Shown piece by piece: positions 4,381 through 40,516 of a stretch of DNA of 40,667 nucleotides (within the stretch, counting starts at the first letter, position 1; every line of letters starts with the position of its first letter). The position numbers and the translations under genes were made by a program. The notes under the pieces were generated by a model. The model was not told where the DNA came from. It saw only the letters and a list, made by a program, of their open reading frames with translations, and ran no database searches. Source of the DNA: a virus; the IMG/VR virus record IMGVR_UViG_3300045988_150405, positions 1 through 40,667 of that record, one strand, 5' to 3'.

Positions 4381-5679
4381 CTATTGCTCTATTATATTGC
4401 TATTATTAAAACTTATTATTCTTTCACTTTCTCCTAGTTTCTCATAAACATTTGATATGCTTTCAACTAAGGTATCTAGTGTAGTTAAATATATATCCTT
4501 AACATCTTCATATTTTAAATACTCTGTATAGTCTTGTGATAATATTTCATCTAATCTTCCTTTTATGTCTATTATTAAATTTATATTATTATATAAGTAT
4601 CTCATTTTATCTCTAAAAGGAGCTAAATCTTTTAAATCATCTTCTAACTTTTCAATAGTTTTAGTTGTTTCTAATTTTCTATTATTAAGCATAGTTATCT
4701 CATTTGATAAATTTGCTATCTCATTTGATAATTTAGTTTTTTCACTTAATAGTTCATTTCTTTCCTTTTTAACATCTTCTGTTTTAGGTAAACTCCTAAG
4801 TTTTTCTAAGTAATCATTCTCCATAGCATACAACTCTTCTTCTTTAGCTTCAAGCTTTCTTTTAGCTTCTTCTATGTTTCCATATTGTGCCTTTAACCTG
4901 TCAGTTTCTTGTGCTAAAGATTGCTCTCTTTGTTCGTAACGTTCTACTGCTTTACTTATTTCTTCGTTTAATATCTCTTCTTTTTCAACTTCAAATTTTT
5001 CTTTAAAATTTCTTAAACTTCTCAACTCATTATATAATTTATTACTTAAGGCTTTTTGCTCTTTTTCCATTACATCTTTAATACTTATACCTTCTTTATC
5101 AGCTTCTTTTTCTAATTCGTTATATTCTTTCTTTAATTTATTGTAATTTACTATTGCCTTATCTAATTCCCTATAATTTAAGTCCTTATTCTTTTTGCAT
5201 GGGTTCAATGCATTTTCCTTGTGGTTTAAGTTTAAAAAGTCCTCTATTTTAAAGTACTCATCCTCTGTACTAAGCAATCTATTTAATATACCATAACCCC
5301 TGGCACTTTTTGGCATAGTTTCAATTCTTTCTTTAGTATAATTTGTACATACATTTATCAACCCATATATAGCTGTAGTTGATAATCCATAAGTATTTCT
5401 ACTGTAGGCATCAAAATCTCTGTTAGTTTCTCTTGTATATTGTGCCATACGTTCAACTTCTTCGTACTTTATATTAGTACCTTTCAATTTATTATAAATG
5501 TCTATTGTATCTCTAAAATAAATTTCCTTAGATATTTTTAGATAACCACCTAATTCAAGGTATCCATACTTAATATCTTCTATTTTATTAATAATTCTAT
5601 TATCAATTTCCTCTTGTGTTAGCATCTTAGCTTCTTCTATTTTCCCTAAAGAAACTAATTCTTTATTCATCTCACTCAT
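4381..5679 (-). CDS. Large coiled-coil protein (432 aa from the corrected start), function unknown
   Basis: The track ORF runs to 5718. However, GGAGGT followed 7 nt later by ATG supports a start at MSEMNKEL (5679), overlapping the stop of the upstream gene by 8 nt. About 200 aa of the central/C-terminal part is E/K/L-rich coiled coil. No P-loop seen. Confidence 0.65.
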   Translation of the reverse strand: MSEMNKELVSLGKIEEAKMLTQEEIDNRIINKIEDIKYGYLELGGYLKISKEIYFRDTIDIYNKLKGTNIKYEEVERMAQYTRETNRDFDAYSRNTYGLSTTAIYGLINVCTNYTKERIETMPKSARGYGILNRLLSTEDEYFKIEDFLNLNHKENALNPCKKNKDLNYRELDKAIVNYNKLKKEYNELEKEADKEGISIKDVMEKEQKALSNKLYNELRSLRNFKEKFEVEKEEILNEEISKAVERYEQREQSLAQETDRLKAQYGNIEEAKRKLEAKEEELYAMENDYLEKLRSLPKTEDVKKERNELLSEKTKLSNEIANLSNEITMLNNRKLETTKTIEKLEDDLKDLAPFRDKMRYLYNNINLIIDIKGRLDEILSQDYTEYLKYEDVKDIYLTTLDTLVESISNVYEKLGESERIISFNNSNIIEQ

Positions 5680-5965
5680 TGTCTGTACCTCCAAATAATG
5701 TCCATTCTTCATCTTCAAGTTCCCTAGTAATTACAGCTTTCTTTCCACCTATTTTGTTATATTTAGGTTTATATTTATGTATCATCCATTTTTCAAGCCT
5801 TTGTATATAATATTTATCATAATGGTATGAATAATAAATATATCTAGCATCATTAATTCTTTTTAAATCTGCTTTTATATGTTGGCTAACCCTCTTGTTT
5901 TTATTTTTAGTTATGCCTACATATATTAAAATTCCGTATTCATCTATAAATTTATAAATATACAT
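5672..5965 (-). CDS. Minimal GIY-YIG nuclease-domain protein (97 aa)
   Basis: MYIYKFIDEYGILIYVGITKNKNKRVSQH...YIQRLEKWMIHKYKPKYN matches the GIY-(10)-YVG...R..QH...E...KP.YN layout. There is no appended DNA-binding domain. Confidence 0.7.
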   Translation of the reverse strand: MYIYKFIDEYGILIYVGITKNKNKRVSQHIKADLKRINDARYIYYSYHYDKYYIQRLEKWMIHKYKPKYNKIGGKKAVITRELEDEEWTLFGGTDNE

Positions 5966-9556: not shown

Positions 9557-9569
9557 ATTATCCCCCCAG

Positions 9570-9749
9570 TTAGCTTAATAGATCGTCATAAGTAACCTTA
9601 AACAATTCCTTTAATAATTTTATCTCCTCAATTGTAAAAGCCCTTTTCCCTAATTCTTTATTGCTATAACTATTTTGTTTTATATTTAAAATGTTAGCAA
9701 TTTCAGTTTGAGTATAACCATTTTTAAGCCTATATTCTTTTACTTTCAT
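9570..9749 (-). CDS. Xre/Cro-family HTH protein (59 aa)
   Basis: Not in the track (<60 aa). GGGGGAGGAA RBS. Translation: MKVKEYRLKNGYTQTEIANILNIKQNSYSNKELGKRAFTIEEIKLLKELFKVTYDDLLS, the classic Xre HTH pattern. Confidence 0.7.
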   Translation of the reverse strand: MKVKEYRLKNGYTQTEIANILNIKQNSYSNKELGKRAFTIEEIKLLKELFKVTYDDLLS

Positions 9750-9833
9750 ATTCCTCCCCCTTTTAAAGTTTATATAATATATAATATCTCTTTTTGTGAT
9801 ATTTGTTATATGTAATCGTTTTATTTCTTACGA

Positions 9834-9858
9834 CAAAAAAGACTACATTGCATAGTCT
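9834..9858 (-). terminator. Intrinsic terminator
   Basis: Minus strand AGACTA-TGCAATG-TAGTCT followed by TTTTTTGTCG, about 40 nt after the stop of 9897..10079. Confidence 0.55.
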
Positions 9859-9896
9859 TTATTGTTTTATTTTAATCTTTATTTTAATATAAATTA

Positions 9897-10079
9897 TTAT
9901 TTTACTATATATTCTTTTAAAGAATAAGAATTTACTTCAAATCCATAGATTTTCTCATCTCTTAATTCCAACTCTTTCTTAGCTTTTTCTGCATCACTTC
10001 TGTTGCTAAAAATATCTAATATATGATACCCATCACAATCATCGCAGTCATAAAATCTTAATACATACACAATATTCAT
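9897..10079 (-). CDS. Hypothetical protein (60 aa)
   Basis: ORF on the coding strand with a 4-nt overlap with the upstream nuclease gene. Confidence 0.55.
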   Translation of the reverse strand: MNIVYVLRFYDCDDCDGYHILDIFSNRSDAEKAKKELELRDEKIYGFEVNSYSLKEYIVK

Positions 10080-12408: not shown

Positions 12409-12588
12409 TTATAAACTTTCATCTAAATCAATTCCTAAAGTTTCTTTTATTTTTTCTTTTTCTAATTTTGTAAATTTAACCTCACCTTTTATTTTTCTAT
12501 ATAAAGCTAATCTTTTTACACCTAAAATTTCCTCTGCAAAACTTTGCATTGTATATCCTTTTTTCTTTATAGCTTCTTTTATATCCAT
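12409..12588 (-). CDS. Cro-like small HTH protein (59 aa from ATG)
   Basis: The track start at 12600 is a GTG lying inside the GAGGTG RBS, so the ATG at 12588 is preferred. Translation: MDIKEAIKKKGYTMQSFAEEILGVKRLALYRKIKGEVKFTKLEKEKI. Paralogue of 12787..12957. Confidence 0.65.
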   Translation of the reverse strand: MDIKEAIKKKGYTMQSFAEEILGVKRLALYRKIKGEVKFTKLEKEKIKETLGIDLDESL

Positions 12589-12616
12589 CTCGCACCTCAC
12601 AATATTTATAATACAT

Positions 12617-12647
12617 ATTATACCACAAAGTTATCTAAAAGATACAT
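12617..12647 (-). promoter_or_regulatory. Extended -10 promoter plus operator (copy 1)
   Basis: Minus strand ATGTATC-TTTTA-GATAACT, then a 6-nt gap, then TGTGGTATAAT. Same architecture and spacing as copy 2. Confidence 0.55.
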
Positions 12648-12682
12648 AAAAAATAAAAAATATACCTCCAATTTAGGAAGTA
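12648..12682 (-). terminator. Intrinsic terminator
   Basis: Minus strand TACTTCC-TAAATT-GGAGGTA (one G.U) followed by TATTTTTTATTTTTT. Confidence 0.55.
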
Positions 12683-12786
12683 CATTTTCAAGTCAATAAA
12701 ATTTTACAAAATCTTAGAGTTTAAAGTGTTATACCCCATTTAAATTTTATTTAACACTACATATTGGTAATATAATTATAACACAT

Positions 12787-12957
12787 TTAAAGATATTTTT
12801 CTAATATAGAGTTAAGTTTTTCTAATTCCAATTTACTAAAATGGATCTCGCCCTTTAGTTTTCTTCTTAAGCTATTATAAGTTATGTCTAACTGTTCAGC
12901 TATCCATTTCTTTTTAAGTCCACTCTTTTTTATAGCTTCATTTATTTTCTCATTCAT
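12787..12957 (-). CDS. Cro-like small HTH protein (56 aa), paralogue of 12409..12588
   Basis: Not in the track. AGAGGTG RBS. Translation: MNEKINEAIKKSGLKKKWIAEQLDITYNSLRRKLKGEIHFSKLELEKLNSILEKYL. It shares EAIKK.G...A..L....L.RK.KGE..F.KLE.EK with its neighbour. Confidence 0.6.
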   Translation of the reverse strand: MNEKINEAIKKSGLKKKWIAEQLDITYNSLRRKLKGEIHFSKLELEKLNSILEKYL

Positions 12958-12967
12958 GTTTGCACCT

Positions 12968-13360
12968 CTAAGCTATCATCTGGAATATTGCATATATTAA
13001 AGCAATTATTAATATATAAGTTAAGCAACCCCAACTTGCAGAACTTTTTTCAACTTGATTTTTAAGTACTTGATAAGTTTTCCATTCCTTTTCTTCTAAC
13101 TGGATCGTTGGCTTATCTCTTGACTGACCTAATTTATTGTATTTAGGAGAATATTTTGTTATATAATAAGTTTCATAAATTAAAGCATCACTTTCGGTCT
13201 TATACTTCTGATATTCTATTTTATATACATTATGATAGCAATTATCTGATAAATGTCCTTTGCCTCCAAAATGTTGTTGCATACGCAAATTTATATTTAT
13301 CGTTTTGCCTATATATATTACATTATTATCTTTATCTAAGAATCTATAGACAAACGCCAT
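12968..13360 (-). CDS. GIY-YIG nuclease-domain protein with a C-terminal hydrophobic tail anchor
   Basis: FVYRFLDKDNNVIYIGKTININLRMQQH...ALIYETYYITKYSPKYN is a GIY-YIG core. The last 20 aa, CLTYILIIALIYAIFQMIA, are TM-like. The GGAGG RBS overlaps the TAG of the upstream ATPase gene (11-nt gap). Confidence 0.7.
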   Translation of the reverse strand: MAFVYRFLDKDNNVIYIGKTININLRMQQHFGGKGHLSDNCYHNVYKIEYQKYKTESDALIYETYYITKYSPKYNKLGQSRDKPTIQLEEKEWKTYQVLKNQVEKSSASWGCLTYILIIALIYAIFQMIA

Positions 13361-13371
13361 AAAACTGCCTC

Positions 13372-14307
13372 CTATTCTCTTAAATAAGGTTTTAATATTT
13401 CTTCCATTTCATCTTCATCTATATACATTATTTGCACTTCTCTTATTCCATTTTTATTTTTAACTTTACATCTACCAGTTACAGTTATATCTTGCAAATC
13501 TTGATTTTTCCCCATTAAAGTATTACTATCTGTTTCATCAAATGCCTTAAATCCTATCACTTGAGGACAATTCATTTTGCATTTACCTATCGTATCTTTT
13601 GTAGCATCTTGCCCTCCTAATATAAAATAAATTCCATATTTTCTGCACTTACTCATTATTCTATGAAGTTCGGTTTTGCATTTATTATCTACTGATAACT
13701 GAACTAATTCATCAACTATAACTATTATATAACTCATTTTTTTATCATATTTTTTATTATAATTAATTACATTCCTACAATTACATTCGTCTAATATTTT
13801 AGATCTTTCTTTCATCTTGTTATCTAAAAACTCAACTATATCTAAAAAACCCTTGTTGTCAGTTCTTACCTTTTTAAAATTTTTATATTTCCTAAAGTAA
13901 TATATATCACTTTCTGCACCGTCCCAACCTAAGAAGAATACTTCTCTTTCTGTATAAGTTTTCATTAAGCTTGTTATTATAACATTTAATAAATTAGATT
14001 TTCCTCCGCCAGTCATACCTCCTATTAATATATGACCATCTAATATATCTATTATTTCTTTTTCTTTATTCATATTATAGCCTATACAAACTTTTAAACC
14101 TTCTTTTTCTCCTTCTGTAAAGGTATATTTAATTTTATTTAAATCTATTTTTTCAGTTTCATATTCCTCAATTGGTAAATACTTATATTTAACTATATTT
14201 TCAATTTCTACAACTTCATCATCTGATTTGTTAGCTTCATAAACTATCTTGCAAGTATAAGCAAATATTCCACCTATTGCCCCTACTAATAAACCTTGAA
14301 TTAACAT
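13372..14307 (-). CDS. Membrane-anchored FtsK/SpoIIIE (HerA-clade) P-loop ATPase
   Basis: N-terminal TM MLIQGLLVGAIGGIFAYTC, Walker A IGGMTGGGKSN and Walker B YIIVIVDEL. The size and layout match the short FtsK-like ATPases of mobile elements. Confidence 0.7.
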   Translation of the reverse strand: MLIQGLLVGAIGGIFAYTCKIVYEANKSDDEVVEIENIVKYKYLPIEEYETEKIDLNKIKYTFTEGEKEGLKVCIGYNMNKEKEIIDILDGHILIGGMTGGGKSNLLNVIITSLMKTYTEREVFFLGWDGAESDIYYFRKYKNFKKVRTDNKGFLDIVEFLDNKMKERSKILDECNCRNVINYNKKYDKKMSYIIVIVDELVQLSVDNKCKTELHRIMSKCRKYGIYFILGGQDATKDTIGKCKMNCPQVIGFKAFDETDSNTLMGKNQDLQDITVTGRCKVKNKNGIREVQIMYIDEDEMEEILKPYLRE

Positions 14308-14401
14308 AGCTAACCCCCTTAAAATCTGCTACAATATAAGAAAAATATATTATAAAGAATTTATATAAAAATGATAAAAATATTAGCAGTAATAGTAGTA
14401 G

Positions 14402-14435
14402 GTGTGATTTCTCACACCTTTATTTTTTTTATTTA
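14402..14435 (+). terminator. Terminator-like hairpin with a U-tract on the plus strand only
   Basis: AGGTGTGA-TTTC-TCACACCT followed by TTATTTTTTTTATTT on plus. The minus-strand reading has no T-run. Confidence 0.4.
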
Positions 14436-14614: not shown

Positions 14615-14836
14615 TTACATACTTCCTTTCTTTTTGGCTACTTCAAAACCTCCACAAGCTTCTACAGTTTGAAAACCATAATCGCTAGTTAATATATCCT
14701 TTAATGTGTAAAAGTCATTTTGTGCTTCTTCATTAACCTCTAAGCATATATTTCTAAAATCTCTATAACTCATATTATCTTTGTGAGTTAATATAGCTAA
14801 TATTTCGTTTTTGCTTTCTAGAGTGTATATTTTCAT
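14615..14836 (-). CDS. Hypothetical protein (73 aa)
   Basis: GAGGGGGA RBS. First ORF downstream of operator/promoter copy 3. Confidence 0.6.
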   Translation of the reverse strand: MKIYTLESKNEILAILTHKDNMSYRDFRNICLEVNEEAQNDFYTLKDILTSDYGFQTVEACGGFEVAKKKGSM

Positions 14837-16621: not shown

Positions 16622-17563
16622 TTAAAAATTATCTTTGAAAATTCCCTTAGCATTAGGGTTTCTACCACTCCAATTTGTTCCATTTTTTAAATCTAATTTA
16701 TATGCAATATCTTCGTTTGACATATCTTCTACACTTTTCAGTTCTCCATTTACATCAACTTTGCTATCTGCCATATATATTGAACCTTTTCTTTTGTCAT
16801 TATCAGCATTAGTATTACTACTTCTATCCCCATACTTATAAGCTAATCTTAAAGCTTTTATTCCATGAGATTTTTTACCATTTGCAATATCTATTTCGCA
16901 TATTTCTAAAGCTTCTTTTAATTTATCTATATCAGTAAATTCTTCTTCACATTTTTTCAAATCTTGCTTTCTAATATTTACACAACTATTATTTATAATT
17001 TCCACAATTTCACTTTCTTTATTTTTTTCATTTTTATCTGTATCTTTTAGGTCATTCTGTGGTATACTGTTATTAGATTTGATATTTTCTTTGTTGGCTT
17101 TTACTGGTGGCACAGTAGAAGCTTTTTTATTTTTCATATCTTCATCATCTTCTGTTATGCTTGGTAATAAAGAATATAATATATCAGTAGGTGCAAAATA
17201 AGAACGTGTGCCTTCTGCATCTTTTTTAGTATATCTTTTAAATATTCCTAAAAATTTAGCTTTCTCTCTTTTCTTTCTAGTGCTAGCACTCATTGAATTA
17301 AGTCTTTCTTCCCAATCATGTGGTTTAGTTCCTAAATCATAATGCAACATATCACTTATAGCTTGTTTTTTAATGCCTAATATATCTAAATCTGTTGCTA
17401 CTTTCTCATACTTAACCCAGTAATAAAACTCACCATTTACAAGTATTTTTTCCATTTTATTACTGTTTATAAAATTCAATAAATACCTTATTACTAAACT
17501 TTCATCATGGCTTATGCCAACCTCTTTTAATCTAGTACTTAAAAAACCATGTATATATTTCAT
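16622..17563 (-). CDS. Putative winged-helix replication-initiator-like / DNA-binding protein (313 aa)
   Basis: The N-terminal ~130 aa (SLVIRYLLNFI...YYWVKYEKVATDLDILGIKKQAISDMLHY...FLGIFKRYTKKDAEGTRSYF) looks like a winged helix, followed by an acidic/basic low-complexity linker. It is adjacent to the iteron/DnaA-box region. The family was not identified. Confidence 0.35.
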   Translation of the reverse strand: MKYIHGFLSTRLKEVGISHDESLVIRYLLNFINSNKMEKILVNGEFYYWVKYEKVATDLDILGIKKQAISDMLHYDLGTKPHDWEERLNSMSASTRKKREKAKFLGIFKRYTKKDAEGTRSYFAPTDILYSLLPSITEDDEDMKNKKASTVPPVKANKENIKSNNSIPQNDLKDTDKNEKNKESEIVEIINNSCVNIRKQDLKKCEEEFTDIDKLKEALEICEIDIANGKKSHGIKALRLAYKYGDRSSNTNADNDKRKGSIYMADSKVDVNGELKSVEDMSNEDIAYKLDLKNGTNWSGRNPNAKGIFKDNF

Positions 17564-17916: not shown

Positions 17917-17946
17917 TTTTAACCTCCTTATTTGTTTGTTAATATT

Positions 17947-17975
17947 ATTATATACTATTAAATAAAATATGTAAA
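17947..17975 (-). promoter_or_regulatory. Strong sigmaA-type early promoter
   Basis: Minus strand TTTACA, a 17-nt spacer and TATAAT, about 30 nt upstream of the first early gene RBS. Confidence 0.6.
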
Positions 17976-18006
17976 TGTTTTTTATTAAAAGATATTTTTT
18001 ATTATT

Positions 18007-18023
18007 TATATATATATATATAT
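18007..18023. repeat. (TA)8 dinucleotide tract in an AT-rich stretch (candidate DNA-unwinding element)
   Basis: TATATATATATATATAT read directly. The flanks are almost pure A/T. Confidence 0.8.
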
Positions 18024-18063
18024 CTATAATAACTTCCCTATAATAACTTATCTATCTTTGTTT

Positions 18064-18168
18064 AATTCCACGGAATGTACCCCGTCAATTCCACGGAATG
18101 TACCCCGTCAATTCCACGGAATGTGTGGGTATTATATTTTTACTTATACCGTCAATTCCACGGAACGT
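18064..18168. repeat. Four iterons AATTCCACGGAA(T/C)GT
   Basis: Copies start at about 18064, 18087, 18110 and 18154. The first three are spaced exactly 23 bp within the unit GTACCCCGTCAATTCCACGGAAT. The core is the inverted repeat ATTCC-N2-GGAAT. Confidence 0.85.
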
Positions 18169-18206
18169 GTGCAGTATTTTCAACGGTTTAAGCTATAAAC
18201 AATATT

Positions 18207-18233
18207 TGTGGATTATGTGGATTGTGTGGATAA
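18207..18233. promoter_or_regulatory. Three tandem DnaA-box-like 9-mers
   Basis: TGTGGATTA TGTGGATTG TGTGGATAA. The third is the exact reverse complement of TTATCCACA. The others have 1 and 2 mismatches. Confidence 0.7.
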
Positions 18234-18310
18234 ACTCATATACAATATAATTGTTAAAATTTTACAAGCACCTAGTAGAGATAAGCACACTCACCCACAA
18301 AGGAGGAAAA

Positions 18311-18442
18311 ATGAAAATAAAATTACTTGAAAATGATAAAGTAATCGAAGTACCAAACTACTGGAAATGGCATTTAGTAGATGGAAGAAAAGTTATAATA
18401 GATCAGAATAAAAAAATAATTGCTTTAGTTATAGAAAAATAA
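18311..18442 (+). CDS. Small plus-strand protein (43 aa)
   Basis: AAAGGAGGAAAA RBS directly before the ATG (internal Met 21 of track ORF 18251..18442). Translation: MKIKLLENDKVIEVPNYWKWHLVDGRKVIIDQNKKIIALVIEK. Confidence 0.6.
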   Translation: MKIKLLENDKVIEVPNYWKWHLVDGRKVIIDQNKKIIALVIEK

Positions 18443-18507
18443 TGTATAAATATATTCAGATATGTTTATAATACCTTTTAAATTAGATTTTAAAGGGCGT
18501 GAAATAG

Positions 18508-18681
18508 ATGTTTAATATATTTAATCAAGATAAGGAAGAAAAAGGCTCATACTGGGAAAGAAATCACCAAGATAATTTTTATAGTGAGAGTAGTTATAAT
18601 AACAATTTTCAATATTGTAGATGTTGTGATAGGTATCAAAGGTTTGAGTATGATAGATGTTGTGTATGTAAATCAAATTAA
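18508..18681 (+). CDS. Small Cys-rich plus-strand protein (57 aa)
   Basis: Not in the track (<60 aa). Translation: MFNIFNQDKEEKGSYWERNHQDNFYSESSYNNNFQYCRCCDRYQRFEYDRCCVCKSN. Weak AAAGGG RBS. Frame checked against antisense track ORF 18521..18709. Confidence 0.4.
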   Translation: MFNIFNQDKEEKGSYWERNHQDNFYSESSYNNNFQYCRCCDRYQRFEYDRCCVCKSN

Positions 18682-18825
18682 AATAGCCTATACGGGGAGT
18701 ATAAGCCATTAAAACATTAGAATTTAATTTTAGGGTTGTAATGATATTTAGTGAAATTTTTCAAAAATCTAGACAATAATTATAAACTTATTGTACAACT
18801 TAATTATATTTTTTATAATAAAATT

Positions 18826-18980
18826 TGTCAATATTTTGCCGAATAAAGAGGGTTTTAACTGCTTTTATAGAATTGTATATATGTACTAAAATTTGGCTGT
18901 GTTTTAGTGCCTCCTTTACTTTTCATTATTAATTATATCGTCAATAAAGAAGATTGCTTTTAGCAGTCTTTTTTTTATTT
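18826..18980 (+). ncRNA. Candidate ~150-nt plus-strand small RNA (promoter 18791-18819, terminator 18950-18980)
   Basis: TTGTAC, a 17-nt spacer and TATAAT on plus. No ORF longer than 12 codons follows. It ends in the hairpin AAGATTGC-TTTTA-GCAGTCTT (one G.U, plus-sense only) plus a TTTTTTTATTT tail. It contains the anti-SD-like GCCTCCTTT. Confidence 0.3.
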
Positions 18981-18994
18981 GCCTAAATTTAAGC

Positions 18995-19023
18995 ATAAAA
19001 AAGAAGCTAATCCCTAAAGCTTC
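18995..19023 (-). terminator. Intrinsic terminator (second one after the lysis genes)
   Basis: Minus strand GAAGCT-TTAGGGATT-AGCTTC followed by TTTTTTATGC. Confidence 0.5.
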
Positions 19024-19147
19024 CCCTTTTACTGAACTTATATGGTTGTTTGTTGATATTGAAATCTTTAGCCGATTAACTGTTGAATTTATACTCTACA
19101 ACTCGAGTGTTGCAAATTAAAGTTGGATATACTTATATTGTAGCAAG

Positions 19148-19184
19148 TAAAAAAAGCTATCGCAACAAGACAATAGCTTTTTCT
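19148..19184. terminator. Bidirectional intrinsic terminator after the endolysin gene
   Basis: AAAGCTAT, a 12-nt loop and ATAGCTTT, flanked by an A-run upstream and a T-run downstream. Confidence 0.6.
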
Positions 19185-19343
19185 AATACAAATTACAAAA
19201 CAAATACAAAACTTTAAAAATAAAGAATCATAAAAAATACAGATTAAAGATAAGATAATATATTCTTACTTTGTGTAATATTATTTTTAAAAAACTATCA
19301 TTAGTTTTTATTATATTATACCATATTTTACCAAAAAAATAAA

Positions 19344-34115: not shown

Positions 34116-35051
34116 TTAAGCTATAAATTCACTTCCATACTTACCAAGCCATTTATCAAGTTTTTCATTCTCTTCTCCATCTATCCAACTTCTAAGTTCT
34201 TCACCTATTTCATCAAAACTCATATTAATAACTGGTACAGTAGTACATAAACCATTTGGATGGTCTAATGGTAAATTATTAACAGTATATATTTGCCCAT
34301 TTCTACTGTTGCACAAATCACAAGTTCTATGCGAGTTAGAGGATAACCATTGTATACCTTCAATGTATGGGTTTTTCTTGCAACTTCTCTTTTGTGCCAT
34401 TTGATAAGCATGATTTATAGATGTCCTTGCTAATCTTTGAGCATTATAATCTATTTTTTTATTAGTTTTAGGATATACTTTACACCAATCCCATTCTTTT
34501 TTAGCATTAGGATTGACATATATTTCTAAATCTTTAGCTACTTCATAGATACTTTTCTTATTAGCAATACCTTCTGCTATTATATAATCAATATCTTTAT
34601 CAAAATGTTTAGTATAAGCCCATATTCTTTCACTAAGTCCTGCTCTATCCTTGTATGCTTTACCGAAAACTATTTCATTCATAGCTTTTTTAGGAATTTT
34701 AGCAAACATATCTCTAAAAGTCGGTTCTAACCCTAAATTATATTGATTATTTATTTCCATAAAAAAATCCAGTTGAGTATTAGATCCTAAACTGGAAGCT
34801 TCTAGCATATTTTTCTTGATAACTGTATTTATTTTCTTTTGCGATGCCCTAAATTCGCTTTTAATTTCCTCTCTAAGCTCTTCTAAATATCTTTTTGATA
34901 AAGAGTTAGGGTTAGCTTTAGAAATCTTTTTAGATACCTTTAAATAGATTTCATTGTATATCTTTAAAATTTCTTTCTTTTGTTTTTTAACTAATCTTAT
35001 TTTTTTCCTTTGACTTTCTTTAACTAATTTTAAATAATCTTTACTAGCCAT
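34116..35051 (-). CDS. Minor head protein (SPP1 gp7 / Mu F-like head morphogenesis)
   Basis: C-terminal NHAYQMAQ...SNSHRTCDLCNSRNGQIY...LPLDHPNGLCTTVPV matches the gp7-family conserved core. Confidence 0.8.
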   Translation of the reverse strand: MASKDYLKLVKESQRKKIRLVKKQKKEILKIYNEIYLKVSKKISKANPNSLSKRYLEELREEIKSEFRASQKKINTVIKKNMLEASSLGSNTQLDFFMEINNQYNLGLEPTFRDMFAKIPKKAMNEIVFGKAYKDRAGLSERIWAYTKHFDKDIDYIIAEGIANKKSIYEVAKDLEIYVNPNAKKEWDWCKVYPKTNKKIDYNAQRLARTSINHAYQMAQKRSCKKNPYIEGIQWLSSNSHRTCDLCNSRNGQIYTVNNLPLDHPNGLCTTVPVINMSFDEIGEELRSWIDGEENEKLDKWLGKYGSEFIA

Positions 35052-36463
35052 TATTCTTCATCCTCAAAATTAGTTTCAAATTGAGCATAACTATCTTCTA
35101 ACATTTGTTTTTCTAGTTGTATTTGTTTTAATTCTTCATCAGCTATGTCATCAGTAACATTAGCCCATTTTTTTATAAATGATTTTCTACTCATAGTTTG
35201 AGCATTAACTTTTTGTAAGTCTAATACCATTTCTTCATCTTCATTTTCTTGTAATGGATATTGATTTTCTACAACTACATCAAAGCTTTCTAACTTAGGT
35301 AATGTAGTTATAGCATATACTTCATTCATTTCAAGTATAGCTCTTATCATCCATTCTAAAGCTGGACGCCATGACATCATTTTTTCTTCACATCTAGTAA
35401 TTAATTGCCAATATAAAGCTTTCATACTCTTACCGCTAGTCATCATGCCTTTTAAATCTGAATTATTTATCATAGGTATATTTAACACTTCGTGCATATC
35501 TGCTTTTATTCTGTTTAAGGTATTTTCCATTCTTGTGTCATAGTTAAAGTCAGTATCTATAGTTCCTATTTGTGCTTGTTTACCATCTGATGCTATATCT
35601 GTAGATACATCCCAATATGCTCCTGGTTTTAACTTAAAATGTTTACTTGCTTCTGGATCTACGTCAGTACCATAAATTATTCGGTTCATACCTTTTTTAA
35701 GTGCATCTAAATCTTCTGATGCTAATTTATTGTAAGCTATGCCATTCTCTAATATTCCTTCTACATCAGATTCACCTTTTAAATCACCACTTAGTCCGTC
35801 ATTTAAGATTACATAAGCAGGTATCCCACTTAGCTTTAAGTCTACATTAACCGCTAGTGTTTCAAGTAAATCACCATTACCATTATAGAAACCTTCGTTT
35901 AATATACATTTACCATCTACCATTTCATACTTTTGTTTCCATATAATTTGCTTAGATTTATCTTGTTCTTGGTTCATTTGATGGAAGAATATTATCTTTT
36001 TAAGTTCATCTACTCTGTCCTCAAAAGGCTCATATACAAACTCTAAACTAGGTACAAACATTACTCTTATAGTTTTAGTAATAGTATCAGCATGAAGCTT
36101 TATAGCTATCCTTTTACCTATAAAACAATCTCTAGCACCTTTTACTAACTTATCTTCAAATAAATTATCTTTAAGAAGCTTATTTATATACTTATTTATT
36201 TCTTCTACTTGTTCCTGGTACTTATCATCCTCTACTTGTACAGTAAAAATAGGAGTTTTACCAAATAAGAACCTAGCTTCTTCTTTTATTAACTTTTTAA
36301 TATAATTAGTTTTCTTTTTAGTTGGAGTATAATCTTTTTCATCAACTATCCAATCTTGACCTGTGCCTTCATAAATATCATAAAGTTTTATTATTTCATT
36401 CATTTCCTTTATAACTTCATTACCATACAATCCACCAAGTTCAGTCATTATTATATTTTGCAT
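35051..36463 (-). CDS. Portal protein (SPP1 Gp6-like)
   Basis: The track ORF runs to 36511, overlapping terL by 32 nt. AAGGAGGTG lies 4-6 nt before the ATG at 36463 (MQNIIMTELGG), which supports the shorter form. Size and position are typical. Confidence 0.85.
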   Translation of the reverse strand: MQNIIMTELGGLYGNEVIKEMNEIIKLYDIYEGTGQDWIVDEKDYTPTKKKTNYIKKLIKEEARFLFGKTPIFTVQVEDDKYQEQVEEINKYINKLLKDNLFEDKLVKGARDCFIGKRIAIKLHADTITKTIRVMFVPSLEFVYEPFEDRVDELKKIIFFHQMNQEQDKSKQIIWKQKYEMVDGKCILNEGFYNGNGDLLETLAVNVDLKLSGIPAYVILNDGLSGDLKGESDVEGILENGIAYNKLASEDLDALKKGMNRIIYGTDVDPEASKHFKLKPGAYWDVSTDIASDGKQAQIGTIDTDFNYDTRMENTLNRIKADMHEVLNIPMINNSDLKGMMTSGKSMKALYWQLITRCEEKMMSWRPALEWMIRAILEMNEVYAITTLPKLESFDVVVENQYPLQENEDEEMVLDLQKVNAQTMSRKSFIKKWANVTDDIADEELKQIQLEKQMLEDSYAQFETNFEDEE

Positions 36464-36479
36464 ATCGCACCTCCTTTTT

Positions 36480-37697
36480 TTATCTGCTATTATAAGTTCT
36501 TTCTTTGCCATATTTTAAATCTGAATAAATAGCATATCTTAAACTATCTAAAACATCATCATATTGTTTTACTGGTTCATCTTTACCATCTTTCCAAACA
36601 TAGTTATATATTTCTTCTTTGAATATATTCACATTATCTTCAATTACTTTTAATCGTCTTGTTTTAAATAAAGAAGCTATCTCACCTATACCAGCTAAAA
36701 CGTCTTTTCTAGCATTGATAGCTTTTATTTGATTTTGCCTTAATTTATTGATATAGTCTGGTCTAGCATGGTCGCAATAGAAATTAATATCTCCATATTC
36801 TTTTACTATCTTTTTAGCTTCATTAACCCACCAATCAATATGTTTATGTTTATAAGCTATTTCTTTAATAAAATAATAATTATCATTAATATCTTGAGCA
36901 ACTAAAGCTATTGATCCATAATGTTCCCAACCAAAGTCAATTCCTGCAAAATATTTTTTAATTTGAACATCTTTCATATCAGCTTCTTTTACATAATTTT
37001 CATCTTTATCAAAATCAGTATATACAACACCTTCACTTGCTACCCATACTCCTAAAATATCTCTATCATAAAACATTCCACTAGGAGTAGAAGCTTCAAT
37101 ACTTTCTACATATTCTTTATTTAAAAATGTATTATCATACAAAGTAAAATTAAAAGCTTTTATATTTAATTGACCATTTTTAAGTCTTTGACCGTCTTTA
37201 TCTATATAATCAACCTTTACAGTATGAGTAGGGTTCTCTGGGTTTGTGTCCATGAAAATTCTAGCACCATCATAAGAACATCTTGAAATAGCTTCTTTTA
37301 CAAAAGTATCATGTAATGTAGTAGCTTCATTAAGTAATGCACCTGCACTTGTAAACCCTCTCATAGCTTTGTAACTATCTGCATTAGCACCATGAAAACA
37401 ATAAATTTTATTTCCATACAACTTAAAAGAACTATCTTTACCTAGAGTTATTTCTCTACCTAAAATTAATTCCATATCATTTAAAATATTTCTTCTTATA
37501 GAGGATTGAGTAGTTCCACCAATTATAAAACTAACTCCTTCATTTCTAAACAAAGATACATGAGCCAAAAATATTTTTATCAATATAAAAGTTTTTCCTG
37601 CTCTTTTTGCCCCACTACAAATAAGAATTTTAGGATTATCTATAGCAAAACTTTCTAGTACTTCAATTTGCTTAGGAGTATAATTATCTAATTCCAT
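36480..37697 (-). CDS. terL: Terminase large subunit
   Basis: Walker A CSGAKRAGKT near the N-terminus, 405 aa, located after terS. The C-terminal nuclease-like half has conserved acidic residues. Confidence 0.9.
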   Translation of the reverse strand: MELDNYTPKQIEVLESFAIDNPKILICSGAKRAGKTFILIKIFLAHVSLFRNEGVSFIIGGTTQSSIRRNILNDMELILGREITLGKDSSFKLYGNKIYCFHGANADSYKAMRGFTSAGALLNEATTLHDTFVKEAISRCSYDGARIFMDTNPENPTHTVKVDYIDKDGQRLKNGQLNIKAFNFTLYDNTFLNKEYVESIEASTPSGMFYDRDILGVWVASEGVVYTDFDKDENYVKEADMKDVQIKKYFAGIDFGWEHYGSIALVAQDINDNYYFIKEIAYKHKHIDWWVNEAKKIVKEYGDINFYCDHARPDYINKLRQNQIKAINARKDVLAGIGEIASLFKTRRLKVIEDNVNIFKEEIYNYVWKDGKDEPVKQYDDVLDSLRYAIYSDLKYGKERTYNSR

Positions 37698-38130
37698 TTC
37701 TTTCCCTCAATTCAAGTATTGCATTAGCTATCTTTTCAGCTTCTCTATCTTCTAAACTAACATCTTCTTCTTTATTTTTCTTAGGGTATAAATCAGTAAG
37801 AGTATTTAGTTCTTTTATTGTATTTAGCATTGAATTCGAGTTGGCTTGTTTTAAGCCTCTATATTCTATATCTTCTTGTGATTTATCTAATAACCACATA
37901 AGCTTTTCTTCTGCTTTGCTTCTGTTCCACAATGCTTTTTGCTTATGCTCTTCTAATAATTCCTCATACCTTGCCCTAATATTGCTTTGTGCCATTAGCT
38001 TAGAAGCTTTTTCAATTATTGTCTTATCTTTCATATTTTCACAATTATATGCAAAACGGTAGGCTTCTGCTTGAGTATTCCCTTCAAGAAGCCTTTGTAC
38101 AAATATTTCTTGTTTTGTGGTTAAACTCAA
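37684..38130 (-). CDS. terS: Terminase small subunit
   Basis: LTTKQEIFVQRLLEGNTQAEAYRFAY matches the Terminase_2-type N-terminal HTH (LT.KQ..F...Y...GN...AY..AY). TTG start after AAGGAGGTG. Confidence 0.85.
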   Translation of the reverse strand: MSLTTKQEIFVQRLLEGNTQAEAYRFAYNCENMKDKTIIEKASKLMAQSNIRARYEELLEEHKQKALWNRSKAEEKLMWLLDKSQEDIEYRGLKQANSNSMLNTIKELNTLTDLYPKKNKEEDVSLEDREAEKIANAILELRERNGIR

Positions 38131-39805: not shown

Positions 39806-40516
39806 TTATTTTTTATTATAAAGAAGCTTTAATTCTTTTACTAAATTATTAGCTTCTTTTTCATTATCGAACGCCCCTTTATTGATTTGCTTTATTCTGC
39901 CATTACCGTCTTTGTACTCAACATATACAATATATCTATCATTTCTTTTTCTGCAAAATATTGTTCTTATATTGTAATTAACATTATCGAAGTTGAATAA
40001 TGAAATATCAGCAACATCGTTCTTTTTATTTGTAGCCATTTTATTTACTATTTCTTTACTATAATCCAACCATTTATCTTTTGAAAAGTCGGATATAATA
40101 AAAGCTTCTTCATTATATAAATGGTCTGAGTTGTATTTAGGCTTGTAAAGATTAATGTAATACATTTCTTTTATATCCATTAAAACTGTAGATGATAAAG
40201 TCATAAATTGTATTTTGTAAATTTCTTCATAGCATTTCATAGGAAGATGACTATTTTTAGATATATGCGAATTTATCTTATATTCAATCCTTTCAGTTTT
40301 GCCTACATATATAACTTCTTTGTCGAAATTTAAAAACCTATATACGCATTTTAAGTTATTAGTTTTCATTTCCATATATTTTTTTCTTGAATATTCAGCA
40401 TTACATTGTTTGCAATAACTCAATATTGAAGGCTTAACCCCTTCTTTTGTCTTTCTATTTCTATATCCAAACTCACTTAATGACTTAATCTTAAAACATC
40501 TAGTGCATTTCTTCAT
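39806..40516 (-). CDS. GIY-YIG endonuclease with an N-terminal Zn finger and a C-terminal integrase-Arm/AP2-type DNA-binding domain (homing-endonuclease-like)
   Basis: CTRCFKIK...YCKQCN; VYRFLNFDKEVIYVGKTERIEYKINSH...MYYINLYKPKYN; C-terminal RYIVYVEYKDGNGRIKQINKGAFDNEKEANNLVKELK resembles the Arm DNA-binding pattern (W...V.Y.D..GK.K...K.GF.TK.EAE). Confidence 0.7.
   Translation of the reverse strand: MKKCTRCFKIKSLSEFGYRNRKTKEGVKPSILSYCKQCNAEYSRKKYMEMKTNNLKCVYRFLNFDKEVIYVGKTERIEYKINSHISKNSHLPMKCYEEIYKIQFMTLSSTVLMDIKEMYYINLYKPKYNSDHLYNEEAFIISDFSKDKWLDYSKEIVNKMATNKKNDVADISLFNFDNVNYNIRTIFCRKRNDRYIVYVEYKDGNGRIKQINKGAFDNEKEANNLVKELKLLYNKK

Follow-up and report, generated by a model that had tools for sequence, protein, structure and literature searches.

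A conserved FtsK-like ATPase and tail-anchored GIY-YIG nuclease module in siphophages or phage-plasmids of uncultured Clostridium and Peptostreptococcaceae

Closest described systems

To date, the use of membrane confinement to tell incoming from resident DNA has been shown for the bacterial protein SNIPE in a 2026 paper (PMC13190303). SNIPE is a GIY-YIG nuclease anchored by a transmembrane (TM) segment, which cleaves lambda DNA only during injection and is toxic to host DNA without this segment. Here we describe a module with related features from the IMG/VR virus record IMGVR_UViG_3300045988_150405, whose full length of 40,667 nucleotides (positions 1 to 40,667) is referred to as the window. 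The module comprises a 73-aa protein, an FtsK/SpoIIIE-family ATPase with a distinctive QD motif and a minimal GIY-YIG nuclease, and is, with high confidence, a conserved early module of a lineage of siphophages or phage-plasmids of uncultured Clostridium and Peptostreptococcaceae. The nuclease, which is devoid of a DNA-binding domain, is predicted to be tethered to the membrane on its cytoplasmic side through a C-terminal TM helix, and the module probably acts on DNA there. Regarding function, a tentative reading, and the first-ranked one, is that the module might destroy DNA entering an infected or lysogenic cell (that of superinfecting phages or other mobile elements), as a phage-encoded, two-component counterpart of SNIPE.

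Both SNIPE and the module nuclease have a GIY-YIG domain with intact catalytic residues, which one TM helix places at the cytoplasmic membrane face in SNIPE and, as predicted from hydropathy and the structure model, would place there in the module; both combine a conserved nuclease with an anchor of variable sequence, and spatial confinement is in both cases a plausible basis for sparing resident DNA. Despite these similarities, they exhibit clear differences. SNIPE is one long, host-encoded and ATPase-free polypeptide with an N-terminal TM segment, a DUF4041 domain and a C-terminal nuclease, whereas the module is phage-encoded and holds a 130-aa nuclease with a C-terminal anchor, always accompanied by an FtsK-family ATPase and the 73-aa protein. 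DUF4041, through which SNIPE binds DNA and the tape measure, had no Pfam match in the 130-aa nuclease.

A second group of relatives is found in integrative and conjugative elements (ICEs) and integrative and mobilizable elements (IMEs) of Firmicutes, in which an FtsK-like tcpA gene lies directly upstream of a gene for a non-canonical relaxase, PF13814 being a MobC relaxase family (PMC5357655). The module resembles the TcpA and relaxase pairs of pCW3, Tn916/ICEBs1 and streptococcal IMEs in that a PF01580 ATPase gene directly precedes the gene of a DNA-nicking enzyme. The ATPases are similar in sequence and structure, and all these elements are mobile elements of Firmicutes. In contrast, the partner is here a tailed GIY-YIG protein instead of a relaxase of the rolling-circle replication, tyrosine-recombinase or MobC type; the module ATPase has one predicted TM helix or none, where TcpA has two; an Asp occupies the position at which TcpA keeps the Arg of its QR motif; and conjugation genes were not found in the window.

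In temperate Bacillus phages, an operon of FtsK/SpoIIIE and Replic_Relax genes has been noted (PMC11526630, PMC4113786). In phages and plasmid-prophages such as BtCS33, phiCM3, the gamma-like phages and RBClin15, the gene for an FtsK-like ATPase of the same PHROG as the module ATPase is flanked by the lysis/lysogeny region and the replication genes, and a putative partner in DNA processing is encoded after it. However, these ATPases are only 25-31% identical to that of the module, keep the QR motif and pair with PF13814 rather than with a tail-anchored GIY-YIG protein, and the BtCS33 ORF (open reading frame), as translated here, is without a hydrophobic N-terminus. Searches of phage and plasmid proteins returned relatives within that range of identity only, mostly from Bacillus and with other partners.

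HerA-NurA, HerA with Sir2 or DUF4297, and DndH/SspH also couple a P-loop ring ATPase to a nuclease effector. The module differs from them in that its ATPase belongs to the FtsK/SpoIIIE branch, in its nuclease fold and in its membrane tether, and none of them is a phage early-gene module. Matches of the ATPase in PADLOC were weak and generic (mad8 5e-12, SspH 1e-11, HerA 9e-5), the nuclease had no PADLOC match of any kind, and the ATPase scored 20.5 bits against Pfam DUF87 (the HerA domain), under the cut-off of 23.2. Full-text literature searches found neither a tail-anchored phage GIY-YIG nuclease nor a phage FtsK-GIY-YIG pair. An initial annotation, made from the window sequence, had not recognized the pair as a described system, and such a system was likewise missing from the literature searches and from the PADLOC, Pfam and NCBIfam models. 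The module unites two known ideas, the ring ATPase coupled to a nuclease and the membrane-confined nuclease, in a new phage-encoded architecture.

The tail-anchored GIY-YIG nuclease

The two ORFs with their motifs, the hydrophobic tail, the 11-nt gap and the overlapping Shine-Dalgarno sequence are all seen in the minus-strand sequence, as initially annotated (coordinates in Table 1). The assignment to an FtsK/SpoIIIE domain and a GIY-YIG nuclease was likewise borne out by Pfam scores above the cut-offs, by PHROG and by fold searches (2ius, 6o1w and 1yd6).

The nuclease matches PF01541 GIY-YIG with 57.2 bits (cut-off 22.6) and also phrog_35456. Its AlphaFold2 model (pLDDT, the predicted local distance difference test score, of 84.8) consists of a GIY-YIG core, the extra strand and a confident terminal helix at residues 112-129, and has as its top fold match the N-terminal GIY-YIG domain of UvrC (1yd6, TM-score 0.74). 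This domain is the best match in sequence as well as in fold, and the catalytic Tyr, Tyr, Lys, Arg, Glu and Asn align. Contrary to UvrC, the module nuclease is a short protein of 130 aa that ends in a TM tail; the UvrB-binding, RNase H-like and helix-hairpin-helix domains are missing from it, and it scores far below every NCBIfam UvrC cut-off. In 120 homologues, the core residues listed in Table 1, together with G35, H36, C41, Y42, W93 and Y96, are invariant or nearly so.

The protein ends in the sequence CLTYILIIALIYAIFQMIA, with a Kyte-Doolittle mean of 2.33 over residues 112-130. A hydrophobic tail is present in 118 of the 120 homologues, which agrees with the initial description of the C-terminus, and at least seven unrelated types of tail sequence occur. 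The tails being unrelated yet hydrophobic, selection therefore seems to act on hydrophobicity and not on sequence, as expected of a membrane anchor. No DNA-binding domain (NUMOD, IENR1 or helix-turn-helix, HTH) was found in the nuclease, and only a short linker and the hydrophobic helix follow the core.

An exhaustive profile search placed the nuclease in a wider GIY-YIG subfamily of 7,327 representatives. Among the best 150 of them, 28 are small proteins with a hydrophobic C-terminal tail, and the other 121 are tail-less with a median length of 230 aa. The closest annotated relatives come from Tsamsa-like Bacillus phages; they are longer and tail-less, and have no FtsK gene alongside.

The window encodes two paralogues of the nuclease, both of the same PHROG. 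One (39806..40516, minus strand, 236 aa) has an N-terminal stretch resembling a Zn finger or HNH motif and a C-terminal Arm-DNA-bind_4 domain, at the place where the module nuclease has its tail. The other (5672..5965, minus strand) is a tail-less protein of 97 aa, 32% identical to the module nuclease, that aligns through the 'EEKEW' strand. Its gene overlaps the start of an unassigned 445-aa ORF (4381..5718), with which it may form another nuclease-plus-partner pair.

The FtsK-like ATPase

The ATPase sequence holds the motifs GGMTGGGKSN and IIVIVDEL, and matches PF01580 FtsK_SpoIIIE (61.7 bits, cut-off 24) and phrog_1358 'FtsK/SpoIIIE-like' (E 5e-55). The Walker residues are nearly invariant in 120 homologues (G102 in 120, K103 in 119, S104 in 119, D199 in 120 and E200 in 119). 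The structure model is trustworthy for residues 85-245 only and poor elsewhere, and Foldseek ranks for this core first the FtsK motor 2ius (E 2.8e-12), then TcpA of pCW3 (6o1w, 1.4e-10) and then the EccC/EssC ATPases. A sequence search of solved structures matched residues 67-300 of the 311 to TcpA 6o1x (E 9.5e-12; profile E 1.4e-15). The packaging motor was rejected as an identity for this protein: a standard terminase is present in the window, with small and large subunits and a portal, as the initial annotation had argued.

Several features set this protein apart from FtsK. Residue numbering was calibrated with the Arg548/Asn549 pair of an FtsK simulation paper, and the corresponding 'RN' motif is kept (R178, N179). 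The canonical arginine finger (PaFtsK Arg620, in 'RAAG') aligns with R222 of the window protein, and 105 of the 120 family members have Ala at this position. The P-loop covaries with it (positions 98-101 and 222-223): 'MTGGGKS' goes with 'CRKYG' in 15 homologues and 'ASRWGKS' with 'CASYG' in 105, which suggests that the catalytic arginine has shifted from a trans to a cis position, inside the 'ASRWGKS' P-loop. Asp234, invariant in all 120, stands at the position of PaFtsK Arg632, the DNA-gripping residue of beta-domain loop II ('TQRPS'), where FtsK, TcpA and EccC all have Arg. This 'QD' signature is found in all ATPases directly linked to a tail-anchored GIY-YIG nuclease, including the distant ones of loci L038 and L043, while the 'QR' is retained by the unlinked FtsK-like proteins of BtCS33 and loci L012 and L035. 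On this evidence the directly linked ATPases form a distinct subfamily.

The gamma domain, the winged-helix domain that reads KOPS/SRS, is absent: the Pfam scan gave no winged-helix match and the protein ends soon after the motor domain, the TcpA alignment running up to residue 300. The multi-span N-terminal membrane domain of FtsK is not matched either, the ATPase having at most one short hydrophobic segment, and the NCBIfam FtsK model gave 47 bits for a cut-off of 1566, all other NCBIfam matches likewise falling well short of theirs. Judged by its D234, the lack of a gamma domain and an arginine finger missing in most members, the ATPase is not an orthodox FtsK. Of the DNA pump initially proposed, the FtsK-family motor domain stands.

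Residues 1-19 of the ATPase have a Kyte-Doolittle mean of 1.73, and an N-terminal TM helix, located in a low-pLDDT region, is plausible rather than certain. Three types of N-terminus occur in the family: a TM-like helix in most members, an amphipathic 'LEPLVDS…WGNLxYRLVEG' segment in some, and a soluble extension of ~95 aa in others. The same nuclease tail pairs with all three, as the WGCLTY… tail does with TM-type, amphipathic and soluble N-termini, and for this reason the nuclease anchor appears to be the invariant membrane feature of the module. A comparison of nuclease tail types with ATPase N-terminus types showed no covariation. Both proteins had initially been placed at the membrane, which agrees with the near-universal nuclease tail and, as the ATPase helix is not family-wide, only partly with the ATPase.

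The ATPase also holds cysteines 177, 210, 221, 243, 247 and 280, conserved in the window clade (three of them were checked and are found in 119-120 of 120 sequences; the others are invariant in a 20-sequence alignment). C177, C243 and C247 are missing from the distant linked ATPases of L038 and L043, which retain C221. These cysteines may be a metal site or a clade-specific feature.

Linkage and distribution of the pair

The ATPase and nuclease genes are separated by 11 nt (13361..13371), and an AGGAGG sequence overlaps the TAG stop codon of the ATPase gene. At every close-family ATPase locus whose contig continues, the ATPase gene is followed by a gene for a 130-139-aa GIY-YIG protein with a hydrophobic tail, at a spacing from a few to ~30 nt or with an overlap, and the pair is retained in the testable relatives down to 41% ATPase identity. 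Relatives retrieved independently through ERCC4 carry the pair in 11 of the 11 cases with at least 3 kb of upstream sequence. Six divergent tail-anchored nucleases were also placed in their genomic context: four lie in operons with FtsK_SpoIIIE genes (L037, L038, L039 and L043; 32-39% nuclease identity), one (L040) stands alone and one is chromosomal, in a Paraclostridium metagenome-assembled genome (MAG). The co-occurrence proposed for the pair is thus found in every testable relative and at four distant loci, and the pairing is, as far as these gene neighbourhoods show, far beyond chance.

The adjacency might be a coincidence in which the GIY-YIG ORF is a selfish homing endonuclease beside an unrelated ATPase gene. 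This phage group does harbour mobile GIY-YIG genes, among them a SegE/NUMOD3 gene polymorphic after ERCC4 and another inserted in L016, and the window GIY-YIG gene at 39806..40516 carries a DNA-binding domain. However, the tail-anchored gene is found in every testable relative and in distant lineages, it ends in a membrane tail in place of a DNA-binding domain, and the operon retains it despite a true homing endonuclease that splits the partners, as in L016, where a SegE-type homing endonuclease gene and an HTH gene are inserted between ATPase and nuclease with both partners kept. The presence/absence polymorphism of homing genes, named initially as an alternative, is not seen for the nuclease and is seen for SegE/NUMOD3. 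The co-occurrence survey refutes a homing-endonuclease identity for the module nuclease, and we give this explanation hardly any credence.

The true homing polymorphism in the same phages concerns a 266-aa SegE_GIY-YIG and NUMOD3 gene located after ERCC4. It is present in L005 (9392-10192), L006, L007 and L009, and absent from L002, L003 and the window (9557..10075).

The locus L043 mirrors the synteny of the window, with a 75-aa gene, the ATPase, the nuclease, small ORFs, ERF, ERCC4 and an HTH gene, and its module adjoins divergently transcribed RepA_N and ParA-like genes. According to these comparisons, the module behaves like core genes of the lineage, in synteny with recombination and replication genes, and not like a patchy accessory defence gene.

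Other arrangements were observed. In the distant elements L037 (1911-7370) and L039 (1704-5987), the tail-anchored nuclease sits in a cluster of three to four FtsK-like paralogues (505/564, 232/223, 276 and 431 aa), with DUF1002 genes upstream. The first ATPase is separated from the nuclease by a conserved winged-helix-looking protein of 188/194 aa. Neither BLASTP nor Pfam supported an identification of this intervening protein as a homologue of Replic_Relax. The chromosomal gene of the Paraclostridium MAG (L041:4001-4438, L042:138-575) encodes a tail-anchored GIY-YIG protein of 145 aa ~260 nt past sbcD-sbcC, and no FtsK-like gene was found near it. It is possible that this protein is a cellular counterpart of the phage nuclease.

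Further components and regulatory elements

Conserved parts of the locus extend beyond the pair initially annotated, as judged by comparison of the loci: a 73-aa protein, an upstream element and a trailing HTH gene. In the divergent linked loci L015, L016, L038 and L043, the ORF that immediately precedes the ATPase gene shares 42-55% identity with the third module component, the 73-aa protein. A profile of this protein matches 42 loci, and it has no family match in Pfam, PHROG or NCBIfam.

The ~110 nt before the ATPase start are almost identical in eight loci in which the ATPases are 55-65% identical and the DNA farther upstream is unrelated, the whole non-coding element being more conserved than the flanking genes. 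Pairing in its hairpin stem is kept by compensatory changes, with G-U wobbles that pair only in sense-strand RNA. The TACTAC/TATTAC repeats differ in number, L017 having additional ones. The promoter-like TTATCA-17-TATAAT sequence, with a score of 10/12, occurs once in the window. An Rfam scan of the window, this element included, gave no matches. Candidate identities of the element are an operator, a site of loading or nicking, and an RNA element.

On the other side of the pair, the 56-aa HTH protein (HTH_8 with 22 bits, at the cut-off; repressor-like by PHROG) is conserved after the nuclease in close relatives and absent in L015. It is paralogous to the product of the next gene (12409..12600) and weakly similar to that of the post-nuclease ORF of L043. 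The regulatory region ahead of that next gene shows a mean column identity of 78% across six loci, with long invariant runs, and terminator-like sites are enriched in it (10 found against 1.1 expected). This region may give rise to a small RNA or act as an attenuator of transcription. With a conserved promoter-like region at one end and a terminator at the other, the ATPase, nuclease and HTH genes look like a discrete, tightly regulated transcription unit.

Table 1. Positions of the module genes, their sequence features and other landmarks of the window
Feature	Position	Strand	Details or basis
FtsK/SpoIIIE-family P-loop ATPase, 311 aa, 'QD' subfamily	13372..14307	-	Pfam, PHROG, structure searches
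ATPase hydrophobic N-terminal segment	residues 1-22, nt 14242..14307	-	hydropathy
ATPase motifs	Walker A G102-K103-S104; Walker B D199-E200; R222; D234		R222 at Arg-finger position; D234 replacing the DNA-gripping Arg of FtsK
Tail-anchored UvrC-type GIY-YIG nuclease, 130 aa	12968..13360	-	Pfam, PHROG, structure model
Nuclease catalytic core	residues 1-78		Y5, Y16, K19, R26, H30, E63, N75
Nuclease conserved strand	residues 94-98		W93, Y96
Nuclease C-terminal TM-like helix	residues ~111-130, nt 12971..13030	-	
Conserved 73-aa protein gene	14615..14836	-	third module component
Near-invariant non-coding element	14308..14430	-	leader with Shine-Dalgarno, A-tract, hairpin, repeats, promoter-like site
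Hairpin	14400..14419	-	within 14308..14430
TACTAC/TATTAC repeats	~14382..14400	-	within 14308..14430
TTATCA-17-TATAAT	14349..14377	-	within 14308..14430
56-aa HTH protein	12787..12957	-	last gene of the apparent transcription unit
Conserved downstream regulatory region	12600..12803	-	promoter-like site, ~90 nt leader, terminator-like hairpin
TG-extended -10 promoter-like site	12775..12803	-	ahead of next HTH gene
Terminator-like hairpin	12656..12689	-	ahead of next HTH gene
Terminase, small subunit	37684..38130		
Terminase, large subunit	36480..37697		
Portal	35051..36511		

A possible exclusion of incoming DNA

In the mechanism tentatively favoured, an oligomer of the ATPase would sit at the membrane through its own N-terminal helix, and presumably through partners where this helix is lacking. 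It would engage DNA arriving at the membrane and hand it to the anchored nuclease, which would nick or cut it. Tethering of a short-linkered, otherwise unspecific nuclease would limit cutting to the inner membrane face, so that the replicating DNA of the phage itself would be spared. A SNIPE-like role best explains the invariant anchor, the very short linker and the lack of a DNA-binding domain. If it holds true, phages would use SNIPE-like spatial logic against their competitors, and would do so with a core gene set.

Several observations weigh against this role. The module is core and stays syntenic with ERF, ERCC4 and primase genes over large distances, which fits a role in DNA metabolism at least as well as an accessory exclusion gene. 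PADLOC gave the module no specific defence-model match, and a ring motor pulling inward is not obviously needed for exclusion. The best NCBIfam E-value of the ATPase is that of the protein-secretion ATPase EssC, far under the cut-off. FtsK-style pumping of double-stranded DNA is not assured either, because of the Asp at the Arg632 position and the Ala at the arginine-finger position in 105/120 members. Finally, the genome itself tolerates a 97-aa nuclease paralogue that has no tail, so that the presumed toxicity of an untethered nuclease becomes a weaker argument.

Sequence leaves exclusion, host DNA degradation and transfer inseparable. Ordered by probability, exclusion comes first, followed by processing of the element's own DNA, a replication/recombination role, host degradation and, last, the homing endonuclease.

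Possible processing of the element's own DNA

The module might instead process or move the DNA of the element that carries it, an alternative that ranks second and is almost as likely as exclusion. The ATPase would then be a coupling or segregation motor of the TcpA/TraB kind and the GIY-YIG protein a site-specific nickase, a nuclease-type 'relaxase' without covalent attachment, acting at the upstream element, for the purpose of mobilization through a host conjugation pore, partition of a plasmid-prophage, or delivery into the forespore of a spore-former. Handling of its own DNA fits the core and syntenic behaviour of the module, the conserved cis element and the plasmid-type neighbours. The nearly full-length match of the ATPase to pCW3 TcpA (6o1x, Foldseek) points the same way, and so does a gene order shared with Firmicutes ICEs/IMEs, in which tcpA is directly upstream of a non-canonical relaxase gene (PMC5357655), and with Bacillus temperate phages, in which an FtsK-like gene precedes PF13814 Replic_Relax, of the MobC relaxase superfamily. 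RepA_N and ParA-like genes lie beside the module in relatives, and a 313-aa ORF of the window is half-shared with a RepA_N initiator. The 110-nt element of hairpin and repeats outconserves the genes, as expected of a cis-acting site. Segregation and sporulation roles for phage FtsK/SpoIIIE genes have been put forward in reviews, as proposals (PMC4113786).

Nevertheless, a relaxase normally departs with the DNA, and this nuclease is membrane-anchored in every lineage. Furthermore, GIY-YIG chemistry is not known to form a covalent protein-DNA link. The TM helix of the ATPase, needed for the docking of a coupling protein, is the less conserved of the two anchors, and an Asp replaces the DNA-gripping Arg that TcpA retains. 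No families of type IV secretion systems, conjugation or relaxases were found among the window ORFs examined, and the upstream element includes a good promoter that alone could explain much of its conservation. If the module did serve the element's own DNA, it would show that FtsK/TcpA-like motors have a further, new kind of partner for DNA processing, in the phage-plasmids of gut anaerobes that form spores.

A more speculative proposal is a minimal DNA-transfer apparatus, in which the membrane-anchored GIY-YIG nickase would act on the upstream hairpin and repeats as a novel, non-covalent 'relaxase' and the QD ATPase would drive the phage-plasmid genome across a membrane or septum. We consider it improbable, more so than the membrane organizer described below. 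If true, a tailed phage could be inherited or spread by a second route that needs no capsid, for instance into the forespore or a neighbouring cell.

Possible roles in replication, recombination or host takeover

The synteny of the module bears on a third possibility, which we regard as unlikely: a membrane-attached organizer of replication and recombination, which would anchor replicating phage DNA and whose nicks or ends would feed the ERF/Rad52-type annealing protein, the ERCC4 nuclease and the primase-helicase. Genes for these three proteins follow the module immediately and constantly across distant relatives, the module behaves as a core gene set, and the chromosomal tail-anchored relative of the Paraclostridium MAG is located just after the repair genes sbcD-sbcC. 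A precedent exists in phi29, which organizes its replication with the early membrane proteins p1 and p16.7. However, the synteny may mean shared early timing only, the unit has a promoter-like site and a terminator of its own, and such an organizer leaves unexplained why a recombination nuclease free of any DNA-binding domain is held within ~15 residues of the bilayer.

Host takeover has also to be considered, as the ATPase family falls in the PHROG category 'moron, auxiliary metabolic gene and host takeover' and the unit is apparently early, with a strong-looking promoter. The motor would reel the chromosome to the membrane and the nuclease would nick it, leading to host shut-off and nucleotide recycling, in a manner similar to T4 EndoII/Ndd and the T5 pre-early functions; T4 EndoII is itself a small GIY-YIG nuclease. 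In contrast, no means of self-protection is evident (C5-methylase genes are found in some relatives but not in the window), a membrane tether would make an attack on the nucleoid inefficient, and the plasmid-type maintenance genes of relatives argue for long-term coexistence with the host. We judge this role improbable, more so than exclusion, processing of own DNA or the replication and recombination organizer.

With either exclusion or processing of its own DNA, the module offers a concrete and testable way to approach the FtsK/SpoIIIE-like genes of Firmicutes phages, which have long gone unexplained. The subfamily can be recognized by the QD motif together with the linked genes for a tail-anchored GIY-YIG protein and a 73-aa protein.

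Genome, source and relatives

The window is a genome of the siphovirus type, with small and large terminase subunits, portal, capsid, tape measure and amidase. The same sequence is found in ENA, as a metagenome contig of 40.6 kb, and also in a metagenome assembly. DNA searches for near and distant relatives among 50,697 annotated phages gave zero matches to the window. Close relatives are confined to metagenomes and MAGs labelled as uncultured Clostridium sp. or Peptostreptococcaceae, on contigs that are always <=49 kb.

None of the window ORFs tested was identified as an integrase (a few ORFs, small or unmatched, are without assignment), and lysogeny of the integration type is therefore unsupported. 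RepA_N initiators lie beside the module in relatives, one of which also has the adjacent ParA-like gene. The 313-aa ORF of the window (16622..17563, minus strand) shares 70% identity over its C-terminal 180 aa with the RepA_N initiator of a relative (L005:464-1432), and a comparison of the two proteins indicates that the N-terminal DNA-binding domain has been swapped. From these genes, a plasmid-like carrier state of the phage is plausible.

The loci L003 and L004 belong to one contig of 53,062 bp, with the ATPase-nuclease region near both its ends, which indicates an assembled concatemer or a circular genome of ~46 kb. In the window, a ~1.4-kb gap without a long ORF (17917..19343) has a lysis gene on one side and the early genes on the other. 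It holds a perfect TTGACA-17-TATAAT sequence on the minus strand (18831..18803), another promoter-like site scoring 11/12, and several terminator-like hairpins on both strands.

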